Sequence record: MK327932.1
Source: Escherichia phage vB_EcoM_G2248
DNA: 64,000 nucleotides
Strand: one strand, 5' to 3'
Position 1 is the stretch's first letter. Every line of letters starts with the position of its first letter. The position numbers and the translations under genes are program-made. Below are positions 12,117 to 26,168 of the stretch, piece by piece. The notes under the pieces were generated by a model. The model saw only the letters and a list, made by a program, of their open reading frames with translations, had not been told where the DNA came from and did no database searches.

Positions 12117-12594
12117 CTAAATCATTGCAGTATTTTAGTGCCTTAGTTTGAAATTCTGCGCTGTTAAGTTCTTCATAACGGTCATAATCACCGTTTAATG
12201 CTGCCTTTCTTGCTTCTTGCTCTATCTGCATGTCAGACATGATAATACAGCGATCCCGTGCTTTCAGCTTCTCAAGTTGTATAGACTCTTCTTTCTGTTT
12301 GCGCAATTCTTCTTGACGCTTCTTTTCTTCTCGTGCTTTCTCTTCCCGCGCTTCTTTGATTGCATCCTTGAACATCTGCGTTTGTGGTGCTAAACCAACT
12401 TTAACGCGATCCACGTCTCGACGTTCCATTTTAGAAATAAAGCATGATTCGATCTGATCATCACTTGCATATGCTGCTTTACATTCACGAAGCAAGAAAA
12501 CCGGATCTGATTTAGCATTCATCATAGCTTCCATGTTGGCACAACCAGTAAGCATGAATGCAGCCGCAAGACCAATCAGTTTAATCATTTTCAT
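12109..12594 (-). CDS. predicted lipoprotein with coiled-coil region
   Basis: N-terminal signal peptide with lipobox LTGC; E/K-rich helical middle. Confidence 0.6.
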   Translation of the reverse strand: MKMIKLIGLAAAFMLTGCANMEAMMNAKSDPVFLLRECKAAYASDDQIESCFISKMERRDVDRVKVGLAPQTQMFKDAIKEAREEKAREEKKRQEELRKQKEESIQLEKLKARDRCIIMSDMQIEQEARKAALNGDYDRYEELNSAEFQTKALKYCNDLAK

Positions 12595-13415
12595 TTAGTC
12601 ACCTCACCGAAAATTGTAAATTGTCTACGATTCTCATCGCCGAAAGATTCTACTACGTCGTTTACCTTGACGCAAGTCCCGCGCGGTAAAATTACTTCAC
12701 ATTCGCAAGGATTCCATGCAATTGACCCAACAACAAAACCTTTATGATCTTTTACGTCAATTACCCATGATACATTACAAGAATGTTGCATCTTTCCGGT
12801 CATTGATTCATATCGATTCTCACAATAAAGGCTAGTGCTGTTTGATAGCCATCCTCCAAAGATGATCGGTGTCATGCTGGTCGATACAAAGTTTTTAAAG
12901 GTAAACTCCTTATCTTCAATGATGCGCTCTATTGTCTGAATGTCAAGATGTTGACCGCGATAAAGAGTACCGTTTAACTTTTCGGTTTTATCCATGACAC
13001 AATCCATCAAATCAACAATCTCTGATATCTCATCGGTCATGTCTTCTTCCCCTAAGAGAGCACCATTTACCCATTCGTATTGTTCAGATACATAATCACA
13101 GATTGCATTATATTCTGCTGGGGTTATGTTGTTATGTTTGTAATGTTTGAATACATTATCTCCAAAGTCTTCGGAGTGTACTTCATACATCACATTAATG
13201 ATTTTCTTGACAAATCCATAATCTTGTGTCTCGCGCTCAAGGAAGCGGATAACCTTCACATAATCATCAAAGTTAATCTGATCGCTGATCATCTCAGTGA
13301 TCATGTAACCATTAATACCCTCAATGTCATATGTTTCGATGTAATTATCCATACGTTCCATCATTGATTCGCGTGATTCTTCTGAAAGACGAAAATCCTG
13401 TAATTTCTTGAACAT
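12591..13415 (-). CDS. Alt-like ADP-ribosyltransferase paralogue (short form)
   Basis: Shares the C-terminal catalytic signature of the adjacent Alt: YRG..., FKNFVSTS..., ECEVILPRG versus Alt YRG, FKNYVSTS, ECEILLPRG. Confidence 0.75.
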   Translation of the reverse strand: MFKKLQDFRLSEESRESMMERMDNYIETYDIEGINGYMITEMISDQINFDDYVKVIRFLERETQDYGFVKKIINVMYEVHSEDFGDNVFKHYKHNNITPAEYNAICDYVSEQYEWVNGALLGEEDMTDEISEIVDLMDCVMDKTEKLNGTLYRGQHLDIQTIERIIEDKEFTFKNFVSTSMTPIIFGGWLSNSTSLYCENRYESMTGKMQHSCNVSWVIDVKDHKGFVVGSIAWNPCECEVILPRGTCVKVNDVVESFGDENRRQFTIFGEVTK

Positions 13416-13493: not shown

Positions 13494-15545
13494 TTACATT
13501 TTAAATTTATCTGGCATTGCGTCTACAGATACCAGATCAGCGATAAGCTGACGTAGAGTTGCCTTATCTGCTTTCTTACGTTCGGTTTTAGCTTCGCTAA
13601 TGAAGCTGGAGAAAGACAGGTCAGAAGCAGGTTTAACAACACCTTCACGGATGAATGCATCACCGTCCGCGATCATCTCGCCAGATTCTTGTAATGCTGC
13701 CAGTTCATTTTTGTTCATAATATGTGCCTCAATGTAATAAGTTTCTTGTGAATCCGTCGATGCCGTAGCACGAGTTACCGTATCAAAGGATAACACAACA
13801 CCGCGAGGAAGTAAAATCTCGCATTCTTTGTAAGCAAATGCTTTGTTACCTACTGGCAAGACAGGGATGTTTTCCGCGCCAGCAATGGAGAAAGCAACAT
13901 TAGCGCCACCTTCACCGCGAGAGCCAGCCATAGAATCAACACCAGCAACGGCACTAGCCACGTTTGCATTCCAGCCGCCAAAAATGTTAGGTGCAAGGGA
14001 AGTGCTCACATAGTTTTTAAAGTAAAACGCTTTTTGCTTACGTGCAGTTTCCCACATTTGCGACCGGAAGTCCATACCACGATACAGAATAGTACCCGGA
14101 TCAAGTTTAACGCCATAGTTGGAGAAGGCATTATCCAGTGCATCGCACATCTTGACCAATTCTTCTGGATCTGAGATGCCTTCAAACTCTTCCAGCTTAC
14201 GATCAGTTAGGAAGTTGTTCATATTGATGTATGCTGCATCGGCATATTCGCTCAACACAAAACCTTCCGCGCCTGGCAGATCAAGATCAATATCTGCCAT
14301 CATTTCACCCATGTTACTAGCAATTGCTTCAAACATACCGGAAGCAACATTACGCAGGGCATCGGTTTTAATCTGGGTGATATGACTACGCAGCATTTCA
14401 GCTTTTACATCTGCTGGCATAGACTGGTCTACTCGATCCATTGCCAGGGCGGTGATCTTGTTTTCGAATACTTCCTCGCTCATGATTTCTTTTAAGCGTT
14501 TGATTGATGCTGCGATAACTTCCGCAGACAACGGATCATATTGATCCTGAACTTTTACCAGTTCGCTTACTGCGTATTTTGCATCGGCTTCGCTTTCAAA
14601 AATAGTACGCATGAAACCATAGCGAGTGATAATATCACTTGTCCAGTCATTCAGAGAACGGGCGGTTGAACGTTCTAAGGCTTGACGATCAATCAGAGTA
14701 TTAAACTGTTTCTTAGGTTCGGCTTCGGTGATATCTTCTTCCGGTTTAAGATTAATTTTTTCTGGATGATTCACATAGTCGCTGTTATAGGTCGCTTGAG
14801 TTTTCAGCATTTCTTCTTTAGTCAAACGAGATTTAGCCGCTACGCGTTGTTCCGCTTCCGCGTTTCGTTCTTCTTCTGACACCAGACTAGCCGCATACGC
14901 CTCATCTTTAGTCAGAGATTCACCAGTAGCCTTAGATACCCAGCGATCACCTAAATCACTTTCTACTTTAGTGAACAAGGAATCATCAAGTTTAATCCCT
15001 TTAATCTTATCAATCGCCATACCGCGACGCTTGACAACAACTAAAGCGATCTTTTTGCTGGTCATTACTTCCTGCTGGAATACTTCAAACTTCGGTGTAC
15101 GACGCACCAAACGCTCTATAACGCGCTTAACCAGTTCGGTCTTACCTTTCATGCGGGATACGTTAAAACGGAACATAACAGCGTCTAATTGCGCTTTACG
15201 GGCTGTTTCCATAACCACATCAAAAGCACTTGCCATAACTGCAATCGGGTTATCGCCTAGACCATTTTTAAGCTGTACAATACGACCGCTTTTGTTCATT
15301 TCGCACAGTACAACATGTGCGGTCTTGTCACCCATACGAATGATTTTAGGTGTTTTGTTGGTGAAGTTACAAAGACGGACAATCACATCTTTATCGCGTG
15401 TCTGTACTGCAAAAAGCTGTTTAGGATTCTGCTTAGGCTTTAAGCACTGTACCGGAGCAATACTGCCAAAGTTTTCTTCCTCTTCCGTCAACAGCCATTT
15501 CTCGAAAGATTCAATCATTAGATCGTCGATTTCTAAGTTAAACAT
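13494..15545 (-). CDS. alt: Alt ADP-ribosyltransferase (packaged, modifies host RNA polymerase in T4)
   Basis: 683 aa (T4 Alt ~682); R-S-ExE catalytic motifs; position after gene 54 as in T4. Confidence 0.85.
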   Translation of the reverse strand: MFNLEIDDLMIESFEKWLLTEEEENFGSIAPVQCLKPKQNPKQLFAVQTRDKDVIVRLCNFTNKTPKIIRMGDKTAHVVLCEMNKSGRIVQLKNGLGDNPIAVMASAFDVVMETARKAQLDAVMFRFNVSRMKGKTELVKRVIERLVRRTPKFEVFQQEVMTSKKIALVVVKRRGMAIDKIKGIKLDDSLFTKVESDLGDRWVSKATGESLTKDEAYAASLVSEEERNAEAEQRVAAKSRLTKEEMLKTQATYNSDYVNHPEKINLKPEEDITEAEPKKQFNTLIDRQALERSTARSLNDWTSDIITRYGFMRTIFESEADAKYAVSELVKVQDQYDPLSAEVIAASIKRLKEIMSEEVFENKITALAMDRVDQSMPADVKAEMLRSHITQIKTDALRNVASGMFEAIASNMGEMMADIDLDLPGAEGFVLSEYADAAYINMNNFLTDRKLEEFEGISDPEELVKMCDALDNAFSNYGVKLDPGTILYRGMDFRSQMWETARKQKAFYFKNYVSTSLAPNIFGGWNANVASAVAGVDSMAGSRGEGGANVAFSIAGAENIPVLPVGNKAFAYKECEILLPRGVVLSFDTVTRATASTDSQETYYIEAHIMNKNELAALQESGEMIADGDAFIREGVVKPASDLSFSSFISEAKTERKKADKATLRQLIADLVSVDAMPDKFKM

Positions 15546-16144: not shown

Positions 16145-16663
16145 TTAGTTATTTTTTAATTGTTCATCTTGCAATAATGCAATCACATGCTGGCGATGTT
16201 CTTCCGATTGAGGCACACCGAAAAAGTTTGTTTTGTAGAAATACTCTAATCGGTCTTCTCGTGTGCTCTCTTCCATCATGATCGCGGGTAGTCCGAGATT
16301 TCGGAAACGTCGCTTTTCTGCTGGCGTAAAATCACTGTAATACAACATAGAATCATCATTACCAGCAATGCTAAACTCATCATTCATGAAGGAGAATATT
16401 GCGTTTAAACGCTGTTTACCGTCCACGATTTCGATCTCATAGCGAGAGCCATCATCAATCTTAGCCATTGCGATAGCACCAACCGGAAAATCATTAATCA
16501 GGTTTTCGATAAACATACGTTTGTTTTCGGTGTCCCATACCAAAGGACGCTGATAATCTGGGTTCATGTTGATATATCCATCTTCTAACCACGCCTCATA
16601 AACAGAGATGACAAAGTTTTTAGTATTGGTATAGTAACGGCGTTTAGGCGTTAAACGGTTCAT
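16145..16663 (-). CDS. DUF262 / ParB-like domain protein (GmrSD N-terminal-domain-like)
   Basis: Motifs DYQRPLVWD and IVDGKQRL typical of DUF262; start moved to ATG at 16663 (MNRLTPK, RBS AGGAGA), 172 aa. Confidence 0.6.
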   Translation of the reverse strand: MNRLTPKRRYYTNTKNFVISVYEAWLEDGYINMNPDYQRPLVWDTENKRMFIENLINDFPVGAIAMAKIDDGSRYEIEIVDGKQRLNAIFSFMNDEFSIAGNDDSMLYYSDFTPAEKRRFRNLGLPAIMMEESTREDRLEYFYKTNFFGVPQSEEHRQHVIALLQDEQLKNN

Positions 16664-16664
16664 G

Positions 16665-16997
16665 TTATAGTCTCCTGAATGGATCATCACGTAAATCAAT
16701 ATCTTTTAAGAACTCATCCCATGAATGGCGGATATTGTTCTTAATTCTCCAGATAAGCGCAGGGATTGAACGCTCTCCCATCTGGAAGTATGGATCATAT
16801 GATCCGTATGCCCAATATGCTACTACAATTCCACAATCAGCGCAATAGTATTCTATTTCACTTGCTGGCGACCAAAGTCCATCAATATGATCGGTGATCT
16901 TGCTTTCGATGTTATGGCTATGACAATCAGGGCAACGGATGCAATGACCTTGTTTATCGTAATTTGACGTTAGCGAATACTTAAACAATCTCATCAT
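16665..16997 (-). CDS. zinc-ribbon protein
   Basis: CxxC...CxxC (CIRCPDCHSH ... YCADCG); translationally coupled to both neighbours. Confidence 0.55.
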   Translation of the reverse strand: MMRLFKYSLTSNYDKQGHCIRCPDCHSHNIESKITDHIDGLWSPASEIEYYCADCGIVVAYWAYGSYDPYFQMGERSIPALIWRIKNNIRHSWDEFLKDIDLRDDPFRRL

Positions 16998-17710
16998 AGA
17001 TCCTTATTTGCTTCAAATACTGCCTTTGCGAATCCTCGCGGGGTAAGTGACCTGATAGTCTTTGTTTTCGTTCCTTTCCCGCCTAGCTTAGAATGCTGTT
17101 TACTGTACCCTTTATTAATCTGCAAAGGTTTCTTTTCTGGCATTATAAAGCCTTGTCCGGTCCATAAGCAAGTCTTTTTCGGGTACATATCACGGGCGGC
17201 AATATACTCAGGAAAAGTAGGATGTTTATCATCTTCCGGCAAATAACCGCCATATTCCCACGGATGGAACATATAATCAGGCTTACGCCACATGCTAGAG
17301 ATAACGCTTACAGGATTCTCTATCATGTAGGGAACTCCTAGCCATTCACCCAAATAAGCGGTTATTTTAGCTGCCCTTACATCATGAACTTGAATCAATG
17401 GTCCTTGCTCTCGTTTCTTTCGTTCAAAGTGTGCAGCGCCACTAACAGCTAAATTGGTGCACGGTGGGAATGCAAAGATAATATCCGGTTTCCCCCATTC
17501 AAGGTCCATTGCTCTTTCCAGCCAGTTCAAATCAATCCATGTGTTTACATAGGTAATGTTTGGATGTTCAAATCGGGTATTATACTTTTTGTATGTACCG
17601 TGGTCGCCATCGTCAGCATTAAAGCAGATCACCTTATGACCTGCTTTAGCCCATTCTAACCCCATTATCCCCGATCCGTCAAAGTTGCAGAATATTAATT
17701 TTTGTTTCAC
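16994..17710 (-). CDS. minimal C5-cytosine methyltransferase-like protein (no obvious target-recognition domain)
   Basis: Motif I-like FDGSGIMG, motif IV-like FPPCTNLAVSG (Pro-Cys), motif VI-like IENPV, C-terminal RSLTPRG resembling the LTPRE motif; only 238 aa. Confidence 0.55.
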   Translation of the reverse strand: MKQKLIFCNFDGSGIMGLEWAKAGHKVICFNADDGDHGTYKKYNTRFEHPNITYVNTWIDLNWLERAMDLEWGKPDIIFAFPPCTNLAVSGAAHFERKKREQGPLIQVHDVRAAKITAYLGEWLGVPYMIENPVSVISSMWRKPDYMFHPWEYGGYLPEDDKHPTFPEYIAARDMYPKKTCLWTGQGFIMPEKKPLQINKGYSKQHSKLGGKGTKTKTIRSLTPRGFAKAVFEANKDL

Positions 17711-18041: not shown

Positions 18042-18209
18042 TTATTTGTTAATTTCTGGTGCGTTGCTAGGATAGTAACCTTCTTTAACTCCGAGGTATT
18101 TCGCAACCATCCCTACAATCTTCTGTGCTACTACAATGTCAAATTTCAGATAATCTTCGCCGTGGGTTTCAATGATATATGCTTCACATGCTGCTTTAGT
18201 CTCGAACAT
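18042..18209 (-). CDS. hypothetical 55-aa protein, copy A of a duplicated gene (not in ORF track)
   Basis: Manual translation MFETKAACEAYIIETHGEDYLKFDIVVAQKIVGMVAKYLGVKEGYYPSNAPEINK; near-identical to 21322..21489. Confidence 0.6.
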   Translation of the reverse strand: MFETKAACEAYIIETHGEDYLKFDIVVAQKIVGMVAKYLGVKEGYYPSNAPEINK

Positions 18210-18906: not shown

Positions 18907-19032
18907 TGTTTGATTCTCCTAAGTGGTATCTCGTTTCGATGGTTGTATTATGCTATACACAGGATCTGGTGTCAATACCTTTTTTAAAAATTTTGGCAAT
19001 AAAAAAGCCGACACTAAGGTCGGCTAATAAAA

Positions 19033-19341
19033 TCAACGAGATAGATAATCGTTTTGCGCGATCTGGTCGGCGTATGCTGGTGTTACGTCAATCGCCAGCA
19101 CTTTAACGCGTGCTTTCTTGCGACCTGGGTTTTCTCGTAACCAGTGCTCATGACCGTGAACATTTTTATACTGCGATGCTTCTTCGAAGGTACGGATCGG
19201 ACCTGGGTAATCAGCGTAAAGGATCTCTAGATCTTCGGTGATGTAAAAATATACATCGTAATTGCTGTTCTCTAGCTTAAGCAGAGACTTTCGGAACATT
19301 GGGAGATTTTCGCGGGTAAATTCAAAGATATTATCTTTCAT
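19033..19341 (-). CDS. gp30.3-like family protein (paralogue 1)
   Basis: Conserved core HGHEHW...VKVLAIDV shared with five other ORFs in this region. Confidence 0.55.
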   Translation of the reverse strand: MKDNIFEFTRENLPMFRKSLLKLENSNYDVYFYITEDLEILYADYPGPIRTFEEASQYKNVHGHEHWLRENPGRKKARVKVLAIDVTPAYADQIAQNDYLSR

Positions 19342-19397
19342 AGTATTATCCTCAATAGTTGGATGAAAAGGGGGGGGGGGGCTTAATGCCCCGTATA

Positions 19398-19685
19398 TTA
19401 AAACAGTCCTTCCTGTACACCGTAGTAGAGTTCATCGCTGATAATTTCATTAATGCGACGGTGTGCATATTCCTGATTTGCGAAGTTGTCAGCAAGTTCT
19501 ACTTTAGTTTCGCCGTCATGAGTCCATTTAGTGATAACTTTACCATCTGCAAATTTGAAGTTGAACTCTTTAGCTACCGCATCGCGTACCAGACGTGCAA
19601 ACTTATTGTTGCGGATTGCATTGTCGGTTTCGTGTGCAGCGTGAGCGAATTTGTTAACTTTCAGAGTGATAGTAATGTATGCCAT
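19398..19685 (-). CDS. hypothetical early protein (AKEFN family, paralogue of 22949..23260)
   Basis: Shares VRDAVAKEFNFK segment with VRKALAKEFNTK in 22949..23260. Confidence 0.5.
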   Translation of the reverse strand: MAYITITLKVNKFAHAAHETDNAIRNNKFARLVRDAVAKEFNFKFADGKVITKWTHDGETKVELADNFANQEYAHRRINEIISDELYYGVQEGLF

Positions 19686-19766
19686 AATTTGATTCTCCTA
19701 GTTAGAAAGTGTATCTCGTTTCGATGGGGATATTATGCTATATCCCCGATCCGGTGTCAACACTTT

Positions 19767-20045
19767 TTATAAAATAATTTTTTGATATTTTTCTATGATG
19801 TTCGTGTAAGTCACATCAACCGCTAGCACCGTTGCTTCGAATCCACCGTTTAGCCAATGGCTATGATCATGATCGTGAAAGAAACCTAGACCAGTACGAA
19901 GACCTTCTTTATATTCTGCGCGTACATTCAGTTTGTCGTCGATAAACAGATAAAACCATGAATTTTTACTAGGATTGATGATACAACCTTTCAGATTAGG
20001 GAGAATATCACGACTAAGAATAAACTTATCACCTACTTTGAACAT
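19767..20045 (-). CDS. gp30.3-like family protein (paralogue 2)
   Basis: HDHDHSHW...TVLAVDV; start moved to internal ATG (MFKVGDKF, RBS GAGGA) to remove overlap with neighbour. Confidence 0.55.
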   Translation of the reverse strand: MFKVGDKFILSRDILPNLKGCIINPSKNSWFYLFIDDKLNVRAEYKEGLRTGLGFFHDHDHSHWLNGGFEATVLAVDVTYTNIIEKYQKIIL

Positions 20046-20059
20046 AATATTTTCCTCAC

Positions 20060-20368
20060 TTATAAAGTTTGACCGTTGTTTTTCGCGTAATGCTGAATGC
20101 GTGCTTGATCTGCTTCCGCTGGTGATAGATTCCATGCGATCACTACAACTTCTGGCGCATCATGATCATTATCACTTACCCAATGATTATGATTCATACA
20201 ATTGTTTGCTATCGCGTGAGCAAATGATCTCATTACCGGAGACGTATAATCATAGTAACGGATTTTCAGATTTTCATCAACGTACAAGTAGATCGTATAC
20301 GGCTTATATTCAGTAACCAGTAACAGACAGTTACGCAATTCTGGGAAAATCTTTTTAGTTAATTTCAT
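20060..20368 (-). CDS. gp30.3-like family protein (paralogue 3)
   Basis: NHNHW...VVVIAWN; start moved to MKLTKKIF (RBS GAGGA). Confidence 0.55.
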   Translation of the reverse strand: MKLTKKIFPELRNCLLLVTEYKPYTIYLYVDENLKIRYYDYTSPVMRSFAHAIANNCMNHNHWVSDNDHDAPEVVVIAWNLSPAEADQARIQHYAKNNGQTL

Positions 20369-20369
20369 T

Positions 20370-20588
20370 TTATAATCCTCGGTCGCGGCTATAGTACACG
20401 GTACGCCATACAATTTCATGTTTCGTGTCGCTCCAGCACACGATCTCATTTACTCTTAAATCTTTGTTATCAACAAAAGATGAACATTGTGACGCTTCTT
20501 TCATCATTTTATCTGCTGTTTTCTCATCAAATACAGCACAGATTTCTTTATACACTCGATAATCTTTGAATTGACTCTGGATACCCAT
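20370..20588 (-). CDS. hypothetical protein, tandem paralogue of 20591..20800
   Basis: Both contain FKDYxxYxxIxxVxxxxxAxKMMxxASxCxSF; track start is GTG, ATG at 20588 preferred. Confidence 0.45.
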   Translation of the reverse strand: MGIQSQFKDYRVYKEICAVFDEKTADKMMKEASQCSSFVDNKDLRVNEIVCWSDTKHEIVWRTVYYSRDRGL

Positions 20589-20590
20589 AA

Positions 20591-20800
20591 TTAACACCAC
20601 TCAAGAGTTTTTGAAAACACATCTATCCATTGTTGAGTATATGCGGTTTCTTTCCATGAGACAATACCAGTAGAATAATGGTTTTTGTTTCCAGAAAAGG
20701 ACGGGCATTTTGATGCATCTTCCATCATCTTTTCGGCGAACTCTGGTTCGTATACTCGCAAGATCTGTTGATATGCTTTATAATCTTTAAATTTGCTCAT
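20591..20800 (-). CDS. hypothetical protein, tandem paralogue of 20370..20588
   Basis: 69 aa, ATG start. Confidence 0.5.
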   Translation of the reverse strand: MSKFKDYKAYQQILRVYEPEFAEKMMEDASKCPSFSGNKNHYSTGIVSWKETAYTQQWIDVFSKTLEWC

Positions 20801-21065
20801 AATCGTTAACTACCTTATCAGCTTCTTTTATTGTTTTTACATCAACTGCGATAACCCGTAAAGGTTCGTCATGGTTCCACCAATGATCGTGAATATCGGC
20901 TTGTGATTTATCACCAAAGGAATCACGAATATCATTTTTACATTTATAGCTAATGTGACCGTCATAGTCAACATAAAGGTAATTATCGAAAATCGGCGTT
21001 TTTAAGATCATACCGAAAAATCTTTCTTTGTGTGTCTTATCCAGCGTTGCAGTAATTCGCATCAT
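20787..21065 (-). CDS. gp30.3-like family protein (paralogue 4)
   Basis: HDHWWNHDEPLRVIAVDV. Confidence 0.55.
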   Translation of the reverse strand: MMRITATLDKTHKERFFGMILKTPIFDNYLYVDYDGHISYKCKNDIRDSFGDKSQADIHDHWWNHDEPLRVIAVDVKTIKEADKVVNDYEQI

Positions 21066-21077
21066 AATATATTCCTC

Positions 21078-21257
21078 TTAGAAAGGGATGGTCATTTCTT
21101 GAGCTTGTACATTCTCGTTAGGATTAAACTTCATCCAACCGATATTGTCTACCAGCATATGTACATTTTTATCATATCCTACTTGAGTAGTCAACACTAA
21201 ATGTGCTTTACCTTCAACGATGATTTCCATGTACTTCTGAACTTCGATAGCTTTCAT
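21078..21257 (-). CDS. hypothetical small protein (59 aa, not in ORF track)
   Basis: Manual translation MKAIEVQKYMEIIVEGKAHLVL...; conserved leader/RBS upstream. Confidence 0.45.
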   Translation of the reverse strand: MKAIEVQKYMEIIVEGKAHLVLTTQVGYDKNVHMLVDNIGWMKFNPNENVQAQEMTIPF

Positions 21258-21321
21258 TTTGATTCTCCGTTTGTTGTCTTGATGGGAGTATCTTACTACT
21301 CCCTTTAATCATTGTCAACGA

Positions 21322-21489
21322 TTATTTGTTAATTTCCGGTGCGTTGCTTGGATAGTAGCCTTCTTTAACACCCAGATATTTTGCAACCATTCCGGTGATC
21401 TTCTGTGCTACTACGATATCGAATTTCAGGTAGTCTTCACCGTGGTTTGCTACAATGTATGCTTCGCATTCTGCTTTAGTCTGGAACAT
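21322..21489 (-). CDS. hypothetical 55-aa protein, copy B of duplicated gene
   Basis: MFQTKAECEAYIVANHGEDYLKFDIVVAQKITGMVAKYLGVKEGYYPSNAPEINK; track ORF begins 12 codons earlier inside the promoter leader. Confidence 0.6.
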   Translation of the reverse strand: MFQTKAECEAYIVANHGEDYLKFDIVVAQKITGMVAKYLGVKEGYYPSNAPEINK

Positions 21490-21523
21490 TTTTGATTCTC
21501 CTATATCTCGTTGGTATGTGTGC

Positions 21524-21553
21524 ATTATAGGGGATCTCCCGATCCCCTGTCAA
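21524..21553 (-). promoter_or_regulatory. sigma70-type early promoter cassette (example)
   Basis: Minus strand TTGACA-GGGGATCGGGAGATCCCC-TATAAT, then leader ...GGAGAATCAAAA-ATG. Confidence 0.7.
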
Positions 21554-21562
21554 CAACTTTTT

Positions 21563-21898
21563 TTATTCTTTATACGCATATTTCATAAATTTGTCTGCTA
21601 CTTCATCGGCATGTTCCGATTCTACGCCGGATTCGAGAACAATAGCAAGGTCGGTTTCGTCGTGACCTTCGTACCAGTGATTATGTGTGTCGTTTGAATC
21701 AATATAGAATTTATCACCTTCGTAAGTTCGAGCAAATACATCTAAATTCTCGTCGATGTAAAAGATCCAATCTTCATAAAGAATAACCGTATTAGCCAGA
21801 TTTTTATTGCCTTCAACGAAAGGTTCGACTACAAACAAATTAGTATTTTCCTCAAAATTATACAGCTTCGTAAACTTCCCAATGTTCAGCGCCAACAC
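21563..21898 (-). CDS. gp30.3-like family protein (paralogue 5; start uncertain, no in-frame ATG)
   Basis: THNHWYEGHDETDLAIVLES core; track start is GTG and overlaps the upstream gene. Confidence 0.45.
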   Translation of the reverse strand: MLALNIGKFTKLYNFEENTNLFVVEPFVEGNKNLANTVILYEDWIFYIDENLDVFARTYEGDKFYIDSNDTHNHWYEGHDETDLAIVLESGVESEHADEVADKFMKYAYKE

Positions 21899-22049
21899 GC
21901 TTAACGAAAAGGTTTTCTTTGATGTTATTCATAAACGTCTGGATGGATTTAATGCGGTTGGAAGGTTTCCAGTCTTTGTTGGCATTGCGGCGATACATAA
22001 TAATATTACCAGTTCGCTTATATTCAGCAACCATTTTAAGACCACACAT
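21858..22049 (-). CDS. hypothetical small basic protein
   Basis: 63 aa, ATG with strong RBS GAGGA. Confidence 0.5.
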   Translation of the reverse strand: MCGLKMVAEYKRTGNIIMYRRNANKDWKPSNRIKSIQTFMNNIKENLFVKRVGAEHWEVYEAV

Positions 22050-22105
22050 AATATTATCCTCAATTTGTGGGAGAGTATTACCCTCCCGATTATTGTTATA
22101 CTACA

Positions 22106-22408
22106 TTACGCAAAATGGCGTGTCAATGCTTCTTTTGCTGTTCCGCTAAGATTCTCGATCTCTCCTGGCATAACATCAACCGCCAGAACTTCTACAACAT
22201 CCTCTGATCCTAACCAGTGAGTATGACCTTTGTAGAACTTGATATCCCATTTATCGCTATCGCTAGCCCACCACACATCACCGTCTATAAAGTTGATGTA
22301 AAGCACACTACGACACATTGAATTAGTTACTTTCAATACTGCGCCTTTCATCTCTTCCACGGTATGGTCTTCCATTTTGAAGACCTCGCCTACCTTAACT
22401 TTTGCCAT
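22106..22408 (-). CDS. gp30.3-like family protein (paralogue 6)
   Basis: GHTHWLGSEDVVEVLAVDV; start moved to MAKVKVGEV so the gene abuts the upstream stop. Confidence 0.55.
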   Translation of the reverse strand: MAKVKVGEVFKMEDHTVEEMKGAVLKVTNSMCRSVLYINFIDGDVWWASDSDKWDIKFYKGHTHWLGSEDVVEVLAVDVMPGEIENLSGTAKEALTRHFA

Positions 22409-22409
22409 G

Positions 22410-22676
22410 TTACATGCTCCGAATATGTTTAGATGCATCTTCCAGTTCGTCGATAGTGACACTGTGAGCCAGTAAGTGTACTGGTTGTGGTTCTTCACCT
22501 TCCATAGTATTGATCAGATGACCGTTTCCTGGGTGGAATGTATCGTTGCCGTTCCAAATAGCATACACATCATCTTCTGTTACGTAGATAATAAGTCCAA
22601 TCGGTGATTCTGGTAATTGAAAAATTTTACCCACTGCATCTTTGCGATTGTTTACGATATCTTTTACTGTCTTCAT
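22410..22676 (-). CDS. hypothetical early protein
   Basis: 88 aa; C-terminal PVHLLAHSVTIDELEDA loosely resembles the 30.3-like core. Confidence 0.5.
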   Translation of the reverse strand: MKTVKDIVNNRKDAVGKIFQLPESPIGLIIYVTEDDVYAIWNGNDTFHPGNGHLINTMEGEEPQPVHLLAHSVTIDELEDASKHIRSM

Positions 22677-22695: not shown

Positions 22696-22875
22696 TTACA
22701 TCACAATCACGCCAGCCGTTGAAAGTTGATGTTTCAACTGAGCATTTTCTGCTACTGTCAAATCAATGATTTCTTGTGACGCTGCAATCATATAGCCATT
22801 GGTGATATTGTTTTGCATCAGTTCAATGGTTTCTTCGTTGTAGCGGATTTTAGCGATGATTTCGTTGAAGTTCAT
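22696..22875 (-). CDS. hypothetical small helical protein
   Basis: Start moved to MNFNEIIAK after the GGAGAATCAAAC leader; 59 aa. Confidence 0.5.
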   Translation of the reverse strand: MNFNEIIAKIRYNEETIELMQNNITNGYMIAASQEIIDLTVAENAQLKHQLSTAGVIVM

Positions 22876-22948
22876 GTTTGATTCTCCTAGTTCGTTTCGG
22901 TATGTGTGTATTATAGGGGAGTTTAACCTCACCTGTCAACAACTTTTT

Positions 22949-23260
22949 TTAAAGTTTTTCCATGATAACGGTCATAATTACATCTTCTGCGCGAGCGGTC
23001 AGATTATCAGCGTCAGTATGTGGGCGGTTGGTTGTTACAGAGATAACACCGTTGCGCACTGGTTTGATATTGATATCAAGATGATCCGCGAAACGTTCGC
23101 CAGTTACAGAATGAATTTTGGTGTTAAATTCTTTTGCCAGTGCCTTGCGAACTTCACGAATCAGGATAGCGTTTTTCAGTTGGTTCTCCGCGCTCATGGT
23201 CTTCTGGGTGTTCATGGTTCCGTCGAAGTCAATCATTGGCAGCGTTACGATGTATTTCAT
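22949..23260 (-). CDS. hypothetical early protein (AKEFN family)
   Basis: Start moved to MKYIVTLP after the conserved leader; 103 aa; paralogue of 19398..19685. Confidence 0.5.
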   Translation of the reverse strand: MKYIVTLPMIDFDGTMNTQKTMSAENQLKNAILIREVRKALAKEFNTKIHSVTGERFADHLDINIKPVRNGVISVTTNRPHTDADNLTARAEDVIMTVIMEKL

Positions 23261-23289
23261 TTTTGATTCTCCGTTTAAGAAAGTGTGTT

Positions 23290-23369
23290 TCGTTTTGATG
23301 TGTGTAGTATAGGGGATACGTGATCCCCTTCGTTTTGATGTGTGTAGTATAGGGGATACGTGATCCCCT
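23290..23369. repeat. perfect tandem duplication (2 x 40 bp) of a promoter core
   Basis: TCGTTTTGATGTGTGTAGTATAGGGGATACGTGATCCCCT occurs twice back to back (23290-23329, 23330-23369). Confidence 0.85.
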
Positions 23370-23739: not shown

Positions 23740-24213
23740 TTACTCCTTATTTTCGCGCTCGTACTTTTCGAAATAAAATTCTACTGGCTGGTCATGAATT
23801 GACAGCAAGCCAAAGCGTTTAGCCGCTCGCAATCCCATATTGCGCTGAATGTACTTCTGGAAGTTCTCGCGTATACACTTACGCCAGTATTCTAAGCCCA
23901 TACAGCTTTTATAAAGATTGCATTGCACACACGCCGGATTCATGTTATCAAGTATATCATGTTCCGGTTTATGCATTCCTACAACCTTATACTTCCACGA
24001 TCCATCATCATTACGGGCAATTCGTCCATTTTCATCATAGACTACCTTTGAGCGTCGCAATACTGGTTTGATGTGGTCTGCGTGCCAGCGATCCCCTAGT
24101 TCCTCGCCACAATAGGCACAACGTCCACCATATTTCATTTTCAGGATCTGGCGTTGCTCTTTCTTTGACAATTTTTTAGGTTTAGGGGCTTTCGCCCCTT
24201 CATTATCACACAT
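23740..24213 (-). CDS. HNH endonuclease-like protein
   Basis: CAYCGEEL...HADHIKP...N...CVQCN arrangement (CxxC, HxxH, second CxxC). Confidence 0.6.
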   Translation of the reverse strand: MCDNEGAKAPKPKKLSKKEQRQILKMKYGGRCAYCGEELGDRWHADHIKPVLRRSKVVYDENGRIARNDDGSWKYKVVGMHKPEHDILDNMNPACVQCNLYKSCMGLEYWRKCIRENFQKYIQRNMGLRAAKRFGLLSIHDQPVEFYFEKYERENKE

Positions 24214-25708
24214 CGAATACCTCTTTTACTGTATTTGCAGTGGTCTTGTCGTAGCGAATACGTTTGATGATCGGGAGAAATAAAGAGAACTCAGGTTCAT
24301 CTTCTTTACGTGATTTGCTGCGAATGTACCCGTTGCATGTCATCTCAATGACTTTTCCAATCAGGTTATGACGGTCAGCCCATAACATTTCTCGGTCGAG
24401 TTCATTTCGACGATCGAACGGAATTACACGTTCAATACCATCATCACCTTTTTCGGTTGTGGTGTCGGTTAATCCCGATCCGGTGTTAGTCATCATTCGT
24501 CCGCACGCACTACGGACAGTAAAACCGCCTACCTTATTAGGATCTTTACTATGCGGATATACATCAACAATTTCAGCGTCGAAGTCAATCACTTCTTTAA
24601 ATTTAACCTGGTCTTTACTGCGACGATCTTCAAATACACCATGTAAATTTTTAAGGATAATACCTTCTAAGCCCATGTTTACATAGCGATGATATACTTC
24701 GCGAGCTTCATCTATATTGTTAACTACAGTGTTTTCGATTATCTGAACACGAGGATCGTTAAGTTCTTCAACAATCTGTTTTAGTTCTTCGAATCGATCT
24801 TTATATTGCTTCGTTGCTTTCTCGTTTCCGTAATACACATCACGGTCGATAACATCCCAGACAGTATAAACAATACATTGGGCTTCTTCTTTTGGAATAG
24901 TTCCTTTAAGTGATTTGTTGAGGATACCATTTCCGGTCTGACGATCTGCAACAACGGATTCTTTTACTGCTTCCGCTACTGGCGTTAATGGCATTTCCTC
25001 TTCTTCAAATATCCATGACAGAGTACCATCATAAACGCTCTCAACGAAGTTCTGCGCTGGTGTTTGCGAAAGGGTAGGCATATATACCAATTCGCCATCT
25101 AGAACAATTCCACGGCCTCGTAGACGCTCTAAAACCGCAAACAAATCATCAAGTCCTTGATAGGTATTACCTGAGCGGGTATAGATTGCTAATGTTTCCC
25201 CGTCAATATCAGCCATACCACGAGCGCCATCGCTTTTAAGTTGTGCATACGCCGGATACTTGATATTAGCAATAGTCTTATCAGAACATGACGATGCAAG
25301 GTGACACGGTTGCTGGGGGATCAGTTTCTTCCATACCTTGTTTGCAGTGGTAGCGGAACAACCACATTCCAGATCACGATTCAGGACCATCATTGCAACT
25401 TTAGCATCATCTTCTGACAAGCAAGTCAGAGTATCGGTAACTAGCTGTAATGCTGCGTTACCAGTTACTTGACGCGTGGCAAGTTTATTTTTAAAGACCT
25501 GTAATGCACCGGATAAAGACAATACAGACGAATAACGCGATGGTTTATCGTATTTCTTTACGCCAAACGTAACCTGTTTGCAATATGCCAGATAAAAGCA
25601 TTCTTTCAGTGTTTCATTGCTTGCAGATTCTTTCAGGATCTTTTCTTTCAGCGATGTTTTGTCTGTTGCTGCAAGCTGGTTAATGATATTAAGAATTGAC
25701 ATTTTCAC
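24206..25708 (-). CDS. 30: ATP-dependent DNA ligase
   Basis: 500 aa; colinear with T4 gp30 as recalled (KADGAR adenylation motif, IDGELV, EGIILKN, C-terminal DKTxANT). Confidence 0.9.
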   Translation of the reverse strand: MKMSILNIINQLAATDKTSLKEKILKESASNETLKECFYLAYCKQVTFGVKKYDKPSRYSSVLSLSGALQVFKNKLATRQVTGNAALQLVTDTLTCLSEDDAKVAMMVLNRDLECGCSATTANKVWKKLIPQQPCHLASSCSDKTIANIKYPAYAQLKSDGARGMADIDGETLAIYTRSGNTYQGLDDLFAVLERLRGRGIVLDGELVYMPTLSQTPAQNFVESVYDGTLSWIFEEEEMPLTPVAEAVKESVVADRQTGNGILNKSLKGTIPKEEAQCIVYTVWDVIDRDVYYGNEKATKQYKDRFEELKQIVEELNDPRVQIIENTVVNNIDEAREVYHRYVNMGLEGIILKNLHGVFEDRRSKDQVKFKEVIDFDAEIVDVYPHSKDPNKVGGFTVRSACGRMMTNTGSGLTDTTTEKGDDGIERVIPFDRRNELDREMLWADRHNLIGKVIEMTCNGYIRSKSRKEDEPEFSLFLPIIKRIRYDKTTANTVKEVFDV

Positions 25709-26168
25709 CTCGTTTTGTTAAACGTTCACGAATATCATTGAGGATACTACAAAATTCCGATTCAGTCAATATAGTCTTTAACGGATCAGTTCCACCTATG
25801 CTATGACGTAATTTCTTATTTCCTGTAGCGAGTAATGCTTTACAAAATTCTGGGTTATCCCGTGCCATCGTAACAAATGCCAGATGTACCAGTCTGTAAT
25901 AATGCTCACTCATTCGATGAATAGGGCGACCCTGAAAATATAACATGTGATTCTCAATCTTTTCAGTTCTTCCGGTTCTTTTTGCTTTGCCACCGTGCAT
26001 CAAAAAGATTTCTCTTTGTCTCTGAGGGTTCTTAAATCTTAGCCCCTGTAAAAATCCTTCTGTGCTGTTAATATCGCAACCAAATAGACGGAATGGTCTT
26101 TTATTGAAATTGCTCAATTCACCCGATGGATAAGGTCCACCCGCATAGATATCAATTTCAGAAGTCAT
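25689..26168 (-). CDS. NADAR/YbiA-like (DUF1768) protein
   Basis: N-terminal GELSNF motif and ~160-aa length typical of the YbiA/NADAR family. Confidence 0.6.
   Translation of the reverse strand: MTSEIDIYAGGPYPSGELSNFNKRPFRLFGCDINSTEGFLQGLRFKNPQRQREIFLMHGGKAKRTGRTEKIENHMLYFQGRPIHRMSEHYYRLVHLAFVTMARDNPEFCKALLATGNKKLRHSIGGTDPLKTILTESEFCSILNDIRERLTKRGENVNS

Follow-up and report, generated by a model that had tools for sequence, protein, structure and literature searches.

Seven divergent copies of a small H-x-H-W protein family between the ligase and alt genes of the Krischvirus phage vB_EcoM_G2248

A 64,000-nucleotide stretch of the genome of Escherichia phage vB_EcoM_G2248 (sequence record MK327932.1; the whole stretch is called the window below) carries, between positions 19033 and 22408, a cluster of small open reading frames (ORFs) whose products share a short H-x-H-W motif. 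A first, sequence-only reading of this DNA took six of these ORFs for a paralogous family resembling T4 gp30.3, each copy with its own promoter, and proposed metal binding by the conserved histidines. The locus raises the question of whether such small and dissimilar ORFs constitute a genuine gene family, to which known phage genes they are related and what their products could do for the phage. The analysis presented here supports, by leave-one-out profiles and by synteny, a real and expanded paralogous family of the early region, interleaved with other small genes; it comprises seven members and is separate from gp30.3. This descriptive part, a lineage-restricted and selectively maintained seven-copy family of early operons, is very probably correct, and the mechanism proposed for it further below, in which the proteins bind and inhibit other molecules, is a tentative and rather doubtful suggestion.

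The 3.7 kb around the cluster showed 92-97% DNA identity to more than 50 Escherichia and Shigella phages of the genus Krischvirus (RB49-like, T4-type), an identity that assigns the window to a Krischvirus phage. Every gene of the cluster region lies on the minus strand. The DNA ligase gene (gene 30, 24206..25708) and the ADP-ribosyltransferase gene alt (13494..15545) flank the cluster, and because of these two landmarks the family was placed in the ligase–alt hyperplastic region (HPR), known from RB49, phi1 and JSE (Arbiol et al. 2010, PMC2839356). The region indeed lies between conserved core genes of a T4-type phage, and RB49, JSE and others share its layout. Roughly 30 small genes are found between ligase and alt, seven of them from the H-x-H-W family.

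All six ORFs of the sequence-only reading were present on the minus strand, and the motif that had drawn attention to them proved to be statistically supported. The scan covered 611 stop-to-stop segments of at least 40 aa in the six frames of the window, with 500 residue shuffles for comparison. The pattern H.HW was found in 6 of the 611 segments, all six being the flagged ORFs, against a mean of 0.68 and a maximum of 4 in the shuffled sets. In each of the six the motif is followed after 5-14 residues by a hydrophobic strand of the form [VIL][LIV][AE]x[DNSG][VIL], a combination seen nowhere else in the window. Hidden Markov models (HMMs) were then built in a leave-one-out manner from the remaining subfamilies and from orthologues drawn from a search of 5.8 billion proteins. 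They recovered the omitted ORF in every case (A, 2.3e-12; B, 7.4e-8; C, 2.5e-15; D, 1.6e-9; E, 1.4e-7; F, 1.7e-11), with the best unrelated segment at an E value of 0.02-0.1. The members share 18-35% identity, and since among pairwise BLASTP comparisons A with C alone was significant (2e-12) and the remaining pairs were marginal, the family was judged to be old and divergent. The family HMM detected no further copies elsewhere in the 64 kb, and comparison of 13 other small HPR proteins with the family by hhalign, including orf63, whose product ends in 'EHW', gave probabilities of at most 1.1% and no additional member.

The family genes, which appear to stem from ancient duplications, are transcribed in the order G, F, E, D, C, B, A. 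A (19033..19341, 102 aa) is of the RB49p197 type, matches phrog_9345 and contains HGHEHW...VKVLAIDV; C (20060..20368, 102 aa, RB49p200 type), its nearest relative in the cluster, matches the same phrog_9345. B (19767..20045, RB49p199 type, phrog_17255) and D (20787..21065, RB49p203 type, phrog_15972) both encode 92 aa, and F (22106..22408, RB49p208 type, phrog_16486) encodes 100 aa. E (21563..21838, RB49p206 type, phrog_15965) has an uncertain start. The six flagged ORFs are thus spread over five PHROG families of 'unknown function', with weak cross-matches to phrog_9345, and the RB49 counterparts (RB49p197, 199, 200, 203, 206 and 208) are annotated 'hypothetical protein' throughout.

The uncertainty about E, which is also the most divergent orthologue set (dS 0.61), arises from a 12-nt deletion between two ATACT repeats in its start region (21839..21853) relative to six related phages. 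The deletion takes out the ATG and three codons used by the six orthologues; the Shine-Dalgarno (SD) sequence stays and is followed by AAT and then TTG. Translation of E could start either at this TTG (21838, 91 aa, 11 nt after GAGG) or at the GTG at 21898 chosen in the sequence-only reading (111 aa), which has no SD sequence.

The six members first proposed are all real, but the total is seven, since a divergent copy, G (22410..22676, minus strand, 88 aa), had been overlooked. In G the sequence N-G-H-L replaces H-x-H-W, and the strand motif reads LLAHSV in the window and LLA(V/T/R)DV in G orthologues. Detection by a profile lacking the own subfamily was direct for A-F; an HMM built without the G subfamily missed G (E 0.48), and its membership was established by profile-profile comparison, in which hhalign aligned the G subfamily with A–F over 71 collinear columns at 95.8% probability (E 7.9e-9), the 13 other small HPR proteins serving as negative control. 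Moreover, the AlphaFold model of A retrieved the JSE G-type protein C4MZ33 from BFVD (E 4.6e-3), and the models of G and A have the same order of secondary-structure elements.

To follow the family through the genus, the region from seven other Krischvirus genomes was scanned with the family HMM. The gene order G-F-E-D-C-B-A was kept across the 8 genomes, with changes at the level of cassettes: G is missing from RB49, JK32 and KMB43, and in JSE and KMB43 the genes B and C are replaced by two C-like copies that are only 46–53% identical. The A-type gene in the JSE and kvi records (JSE locus L008 6374..6762; proteins P0080 and P0047) is frameshifted exactly at the His motif, through either pseudogenisation or sequencing error. 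Pooled Nei–Gojobori ratios of nonsynonymous to synonymous substitution rates (dN/dS) were 0.11–0.40 for all seven genes, the divergence of G being too low for its value to be informative; for the other members they were 0.22 (A), 0.11 (B), 0.25 (C), 0.12 (D), 0.20 (E) and 0.29 (F). The family genes are under purifying selection and are conserved and annotated in 50+ genomes. The weakness of most pairwise BLASTP values would be expected if these were chance ORFs with a spurious motif and not genes. This explanation is hardly credible and was rejected in view of the leave-one-out E values (7.4e-8 and 1.4e-7 for the weakest recoveries, 2.5e-15 for the best), the motif count, the dN/dS values, the conservation among genomes and the confident AlphaFold2 models described below.

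The label 'gp30.3-like' did not survive comparison with the true gene. PF08010 (Phage_30_3, gathering score 36 bits) matched none of the seven members at E<=1 and none of 54 family members at E<=10. The positive control was at hand in the window itself, where a 159-aa, single-copy ORF on the minus strand (25689..26168) scored 131.9 bits (E 1.9e-38); this 30.3 orthologue overlaps the ligase start by about 20 nt and is annotated 30.3 in RB49 and JSE. Comparison of the family alignment (A2) with this gp30.3 by hhalign gave 0.4% probability over 17 columns. The position is different as well: 30.3 lies upstream of gene 30 in T4, RB49 and JSE and the H-x-H-W family lies downstream of the ligase gene, in an interval whose T4 counterpart has alt.1 as its sole small gene. 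The family HMM found no member in T4 at 121–134 kb (the 30-alt / 30.x region). Nearness to the ligase gene is the only point in favour of an expansion of T4 gene 30.3, and since size (159 aa versus 88-102 aa) and side of the ligase both differ, and a separate single-copy orthologue exists, a relationship to gp30.3 was dismissed as having a negligible chance of being true.

A promoter in front of each copy was likewise not found. None of the seven genes has a sigma-70 or promoter-stem-loop (PeSL) consensus within 70 nt upstream. The PeSLs, which function as early promoter elements (PMC2839356), precede other small genes, and the members follow as second to sixth cistron, so the claim of one promoter per copy is unsupported and was rejected. 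The PeSL layout, repeated in the region, consists of TTGACA, a GC stem-loop, TATAAT and then GGAGAATCAAA-ATG, and was found in front of orf59_22696, orf55_21322, orf95_19398 and others, never in front of a family member.

Read in the direction of transcription, all on the minus strand, the cluster would start with a PeSL-type early promoter at 22910..22939 (TTGACA-N18-TATAAT, 12/12 match) serving orf59 (22696..22875), G and F. A weaker promoter-like site (22098..22126, 10/12), inside the 3' end of F, and a hairpin after it (22069..22087; -13.2 kcal/mol, z -3.8) lie upstream of orf63 and E. A promoter P21553 probably forms a unit with orf55, and the promoter-like site P21318 (21290..21318, 10/12) precedes orf59 (21078..21257), D, orf69, orf76, C and B. 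The last unit, behind a PeSL-type early promoter (P19760, 19732..19760, 11/12), comprises orf95 (19398..19685) and A, and an intrinsic-terminator-like hairpin with a T-run (19006..19025; -11.2 kcal/mol, z -3.7) just after A closes the cluster. The distance from a family gene to the preceding gene is 0–19 nt, with the exception of A (56 nt). The space between orf95 and A holds an element at 19370..19392 (-10.2 kcal/mol, z -1.6), in which a GGGGC/GCCCC hairpin runs into a homopolymer of 12 C and a TTTT tract; it contains no promoter, carries a terminator annotation in G2494 and G37-3 and looks terminator- or attenuator-like. The length of its C12 homopolymer could vary.

This arrangement suggests that the family is co-transcribed early, as downstream cistrons of short sigma-70 PeSL operons, the early expression being deduced from promoter type and position (PMC2839356). 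Members A, B, D and E and the unrelated orf63 have a similar ribosome-binding context, (T/G)(T/A)GAGGA(T/A)(A/T)AT..T-ATG (19342..19355, 20046..20059, 21066..21077, 21839..21857 and 22050..22063, minus strand), different from the GGAGAATCAAA-ATG leader behind the PeSL promoters. Given this common context, the translation-initiation region may have been part of the duplicated unit.

Conservation was counted in 29 non-redundant members, in the numbering of A. H66 was present in 29/29, Y33 in 27/29 (Phe in the other two), V86 in 27/29, W67 in 24/29 (Leu in the G type), H64 in 23/29 (Asn in 5), A83 in 23/29, L82 and D35 in 22/29 each, and D85 in 18/29 (Asn in 7, Gly or Ser in 4). The core had been described as His-rich; the H-x-H-W of A-F stands, but the flanking histidines are not conserved (H62, 3/29), so that by these counts the stretch reduces to one invariant His and a frequent second one. 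The members, of 88-102 aa, appear from their sequences to be small, soluble and mostly acidic proteins (pI 4.2–6.9), and no conserved Cys or transmembrane segment was seen on reading them. AlphaFold2, run with family alignments, gave confident models for A (mean predicted local distance difference test, pLDDT, 89.1; predicted template modelling score, pTM, 0.83) and G (pLDDT 90.8, pTM 0.82). Each family protein is predicted to be one compact alpha/beta domain that begins with an N-terminal strand or helix. Both models then show a small antiparallel sheet and a short helix with the invariant His, after which the last strand, (V/I)LAxDV, leads to a helix at the C terminus. The fold search of BFVD with the model of A retrieved family members only.

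How far the family extends was examined by a profile search of 1.84 billion representative proteins, which gave 22 matches at E<=1e-3. All but one were small family ORFs without a functional name, nearly all with H-(N/D)-H-W. The odd one, a 965-aa bacterial lipoprotein (P0102), reached E 6.5e-4 by summation over about five tandem repeats with 'FYINT-TGK-HWL'; this match is unreliable and probably spurious. Another large search, made with a broader profile, added no relatives from outside the family, and when one divergent member (P0093) was compared by tblastn with 50,697 phage records, Krischvirus alone was hit (56 records). The family is thus essentially restricted to Krischvirus phages, with a few relatives in metagenomes. 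A 20-kb metagenomic contig from a more distant T4-like phage has two family copies in the same ligase–alt interval, and a 2.1-kb contig (L002) has four family genes with five domains in total. One of these genes (P0088, L002 823..1434) encodes a 203-aa natural tandem fusion of two family domains, which suggests that the domains work as dimers. A single G-type homologue (97 aa, 65% identical) is present in Salmonella enterica prophage remnants (L013-L016, 8001..8294). It directly follows small ORFs that match Rz-like spanins weakly and lies near terminase and Rha genes, at the remnant edge and beside host-type genes. This lone copy indicates that a G-type gene can work alone as an accessory gene, and the finding suggests exchange between the virulent T4-type phage region and temperate phages.

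As for function, the proposal put forward here is that the family proteins would be non-catalytic and would work by stoichiometric binding or inhibition, directed at host components or at small molecules of immune signalling. The His/Trp helix, the Tyr of 'YxYID' and the Asp or Asn after the last strand would form a conserved pocket, and the paralogues would have diverged over the remaining surface to meet different targets in host take-over or counter-defence. The single conserved surface feature made up of the His/Trp helix, Tyr33 and Asp/Asn85 is deduced from sequence conservation. Several points weigh against this proposal. Searches of Pfam, NCBIfam and PDB sequences gave no significant match, no significant homology to any characterised protein was found and every PHROG match was labelled 'unknown function'. 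The pocket was drawn from conservation and the early timing from promoter consensus, and the strictly conserved His would be compatible with a catalytic or metal-binding role as well. The description and the binder mechanism, taken together as a single statement, fall somewhat short of an even chance.

The metal-binding role would have H-x-H(-W) and acidic residues coordinate Zn2+ or Ni2+, either inside a single chain or through a His4 site shared by the two chains of a dimer, in a family that would buffer, deliver or structurally need a metal. The frequency of H-x-H (23/29) with its invariant second His speaks for this, as do the extra flanking histidines of some copies (e.g. HDHDHSHW, HGHEHW); the tandem fusion P0088 is compatible with an inter-domain site, and the sole PDB sequence match, although not significant (E 5.1), was the zinc-binding pneumococcal histidine-triad protein PhtD. 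A metal site built from several fixed histidines is nevertheless doubtful because no more than one His is invariant: the G subfamily has Asn in place of the first His, some E orthologues lack this His, and position 62 is rarely His. The replacement of the 'DV' Asp by Asn, Ser or Gly in 11/29 members is more like a helix-capping or hydrogen-bonding role, and there is neither a conserved Cys nor a match to Pfam Strep_his_triad or any metal-binding family. Metal binding is on balance unlikely. Small enzymes, for example phosphodiesterases or hydrolases with a host metabolite, signal or nucleic acid as substrate, would use the invariant His for catalysis; its absolute conservation beside conserved aromatic and acidic residues, together with purifying selection on all copies, agrees with such an activity, which is nonetheless regarded as improbable.

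It could further be supposed that the family is a divergent branch of DUF2829 (Tad2/AcrIIA7), i.e. oligomeric sponges for nucleotide immune signals (gcADPR, His-ADPR, cyclic oligonucleotides), with each paralogue tuned to a different signal. The Tad2 motif string is loosely collinear with the family 'HxHW…(V/I)LAxDV', Tad2 topology and ligand contacts ('GWNG', 'IHAW..SQTD', then 'LAEDW') being known from 10.1101/2023.05.01.538930 and from PDB sequences. The profiles gave no such connection: Pfam scans of the family contained no PF11195 match, hhalign of the family or any subfamily against an alignment of 120 collected PF11195 proteins gave at most 1.9%, hmmsearch stayed at noise level in both directions, and the fold search with the model of A did not retrieve DUF2829 proteins. 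Homology by sequence was thus rejected, and given these null results the Tad2 link amounts to a weak structural resemblance from one model and not to membership. Membership of such a branch has a low probability, and an equally low one attaches to the wider idea of a Tad2/AcrIIA7-like early counter-defence battery of T4-type coliphages, which would use the His/Trp helix as pocket and have signals or host defence proteins as targets.

The genes themselves are public as hypothetical proteins and the HPR/PeSL context has been published, and the grouping into a family is undescribed in the literature found. Arbiol et al. 2010 (PMC2839356) did not describe these ORFs as a paralogous family, and no description of the family or of Krischvirus RNA-seq was found in the literature. 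What the present work provides is one testable family in place of 'hypothetical proteins' over five PHROGs, with an invariant His, conserved Trp, Tyr and Asp/Asn, a likely dimer and natural variants in which copies are gained, lost or swapped between phages. Phage-therapy cocktails include RB49-like phages, most of whose HPR genes are uncharacterised. Should the family prove to serve counter-defence or host take-over, it would represent a new group of inhibitors with several specificities side by side in one genome, and if the Tad2-like interpretation were true, a previously unrecognised and highly diverged sponge/inhibitor branch; otherwise the work still corrects the gp30.3 annotation lead and the claim of one promoter per copy.

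Other genes and elements of the region deserve mention. An HNH endonuclease gene (23740..24213) adjoins the ligase gene on the minus strand. Other accessory genes of the region are found at 16145..16699, 16994..17710 and 12591..13415 (minus strand). Their products are a 184-aa protein in which a GmrSD_N (DUF262) domain was recognised (E 5e-20), a 238-aa protein annotated as DNA methyltransferase in RB49 and JSE, and, beyond alt in the downstream direction, a second ADP-ribosyltransferase. Two 55-aa ORFs (18042..18209 and 21322..21489, minus strand) are paralogues with 89% protein identity and 84% DNA identity over 172 nt; each stands right behind a near-identical PeSL promoter, so that the pair looks like a recent duplication of a promoter-plus-gene cassette. 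A 40-nt unit is present in perfect tandem (two 100%-identical copies, 23289..23368) within the PeSL that precedes the gene at 22949 and repeats the -10/stem-loop portion of that PeSL. Between D and C, orf69 (20591..20800) and orf76 (20370..20600), on the minus strand, are tandem paralogues (41% identical, E 3e-14). On a metagenomic contig (L003 318..1100) two domains of this type and a C-type H-x-H-W domain make up one 260-aa ORF. This ORF may connect the two families in the Rosetta-stone sense, or it may have arisen through an error of assembly or a frameshift.

Among known systems, Tis1 (PA14_01140; PDB 6ox6_B), the immunity protein of the type VI secretion system effector Tas1, was counted with the closest. 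The reference Tad2/PF11195 fold combines an alpha1 helix with a sheet of five antiparallel strands, whose loops carry short helices, and forms a homotetramer that binds gcADPR or cyclic nucleotides via W25/N26 and H71/W73/D79; the H-x-H-W family has no GWNG (by inspection), and its predicted fold differs by an additional helix at the C terminus and by a longer loop ahead of the last strand. PhtD offers a local resemblance ('Y-T-x-D-G-Y-I-F ... H-x-H-W-I' compared with 'Y-x-Y-I-D-E-D-L ... H-x-H-W-L'), but the family does not conserve the HxxHxH triad, the Pht proteins are surface proteins of Gram-positive cocci, and the match was regarded as noise. Like T4 gp30.3, the family members are products of small early genes without a known function that lie close to the DNA ligase gene in T4-type phages, although gp30.3 has about 150-160 aa and is encoded by a single copy upstream of gene 30, and the family has 88-102 aa (E up to 111 aa with GTG) and seven copies downstream. 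The PeSL-flanked ORFan cassettes of the HPRs of RB49, phi1 and JSE (PMC2839356, PMC4122927) belong to the same lineage. The family departs from the PeSL ORFans of Arbiol et al. 2010 in that no PeSL stands directly before any of its seven members, and resembles these cassettes in consisting of small database-orphan early genes between core genes and in the gain, loss and swapping of whole cassettes between phages.

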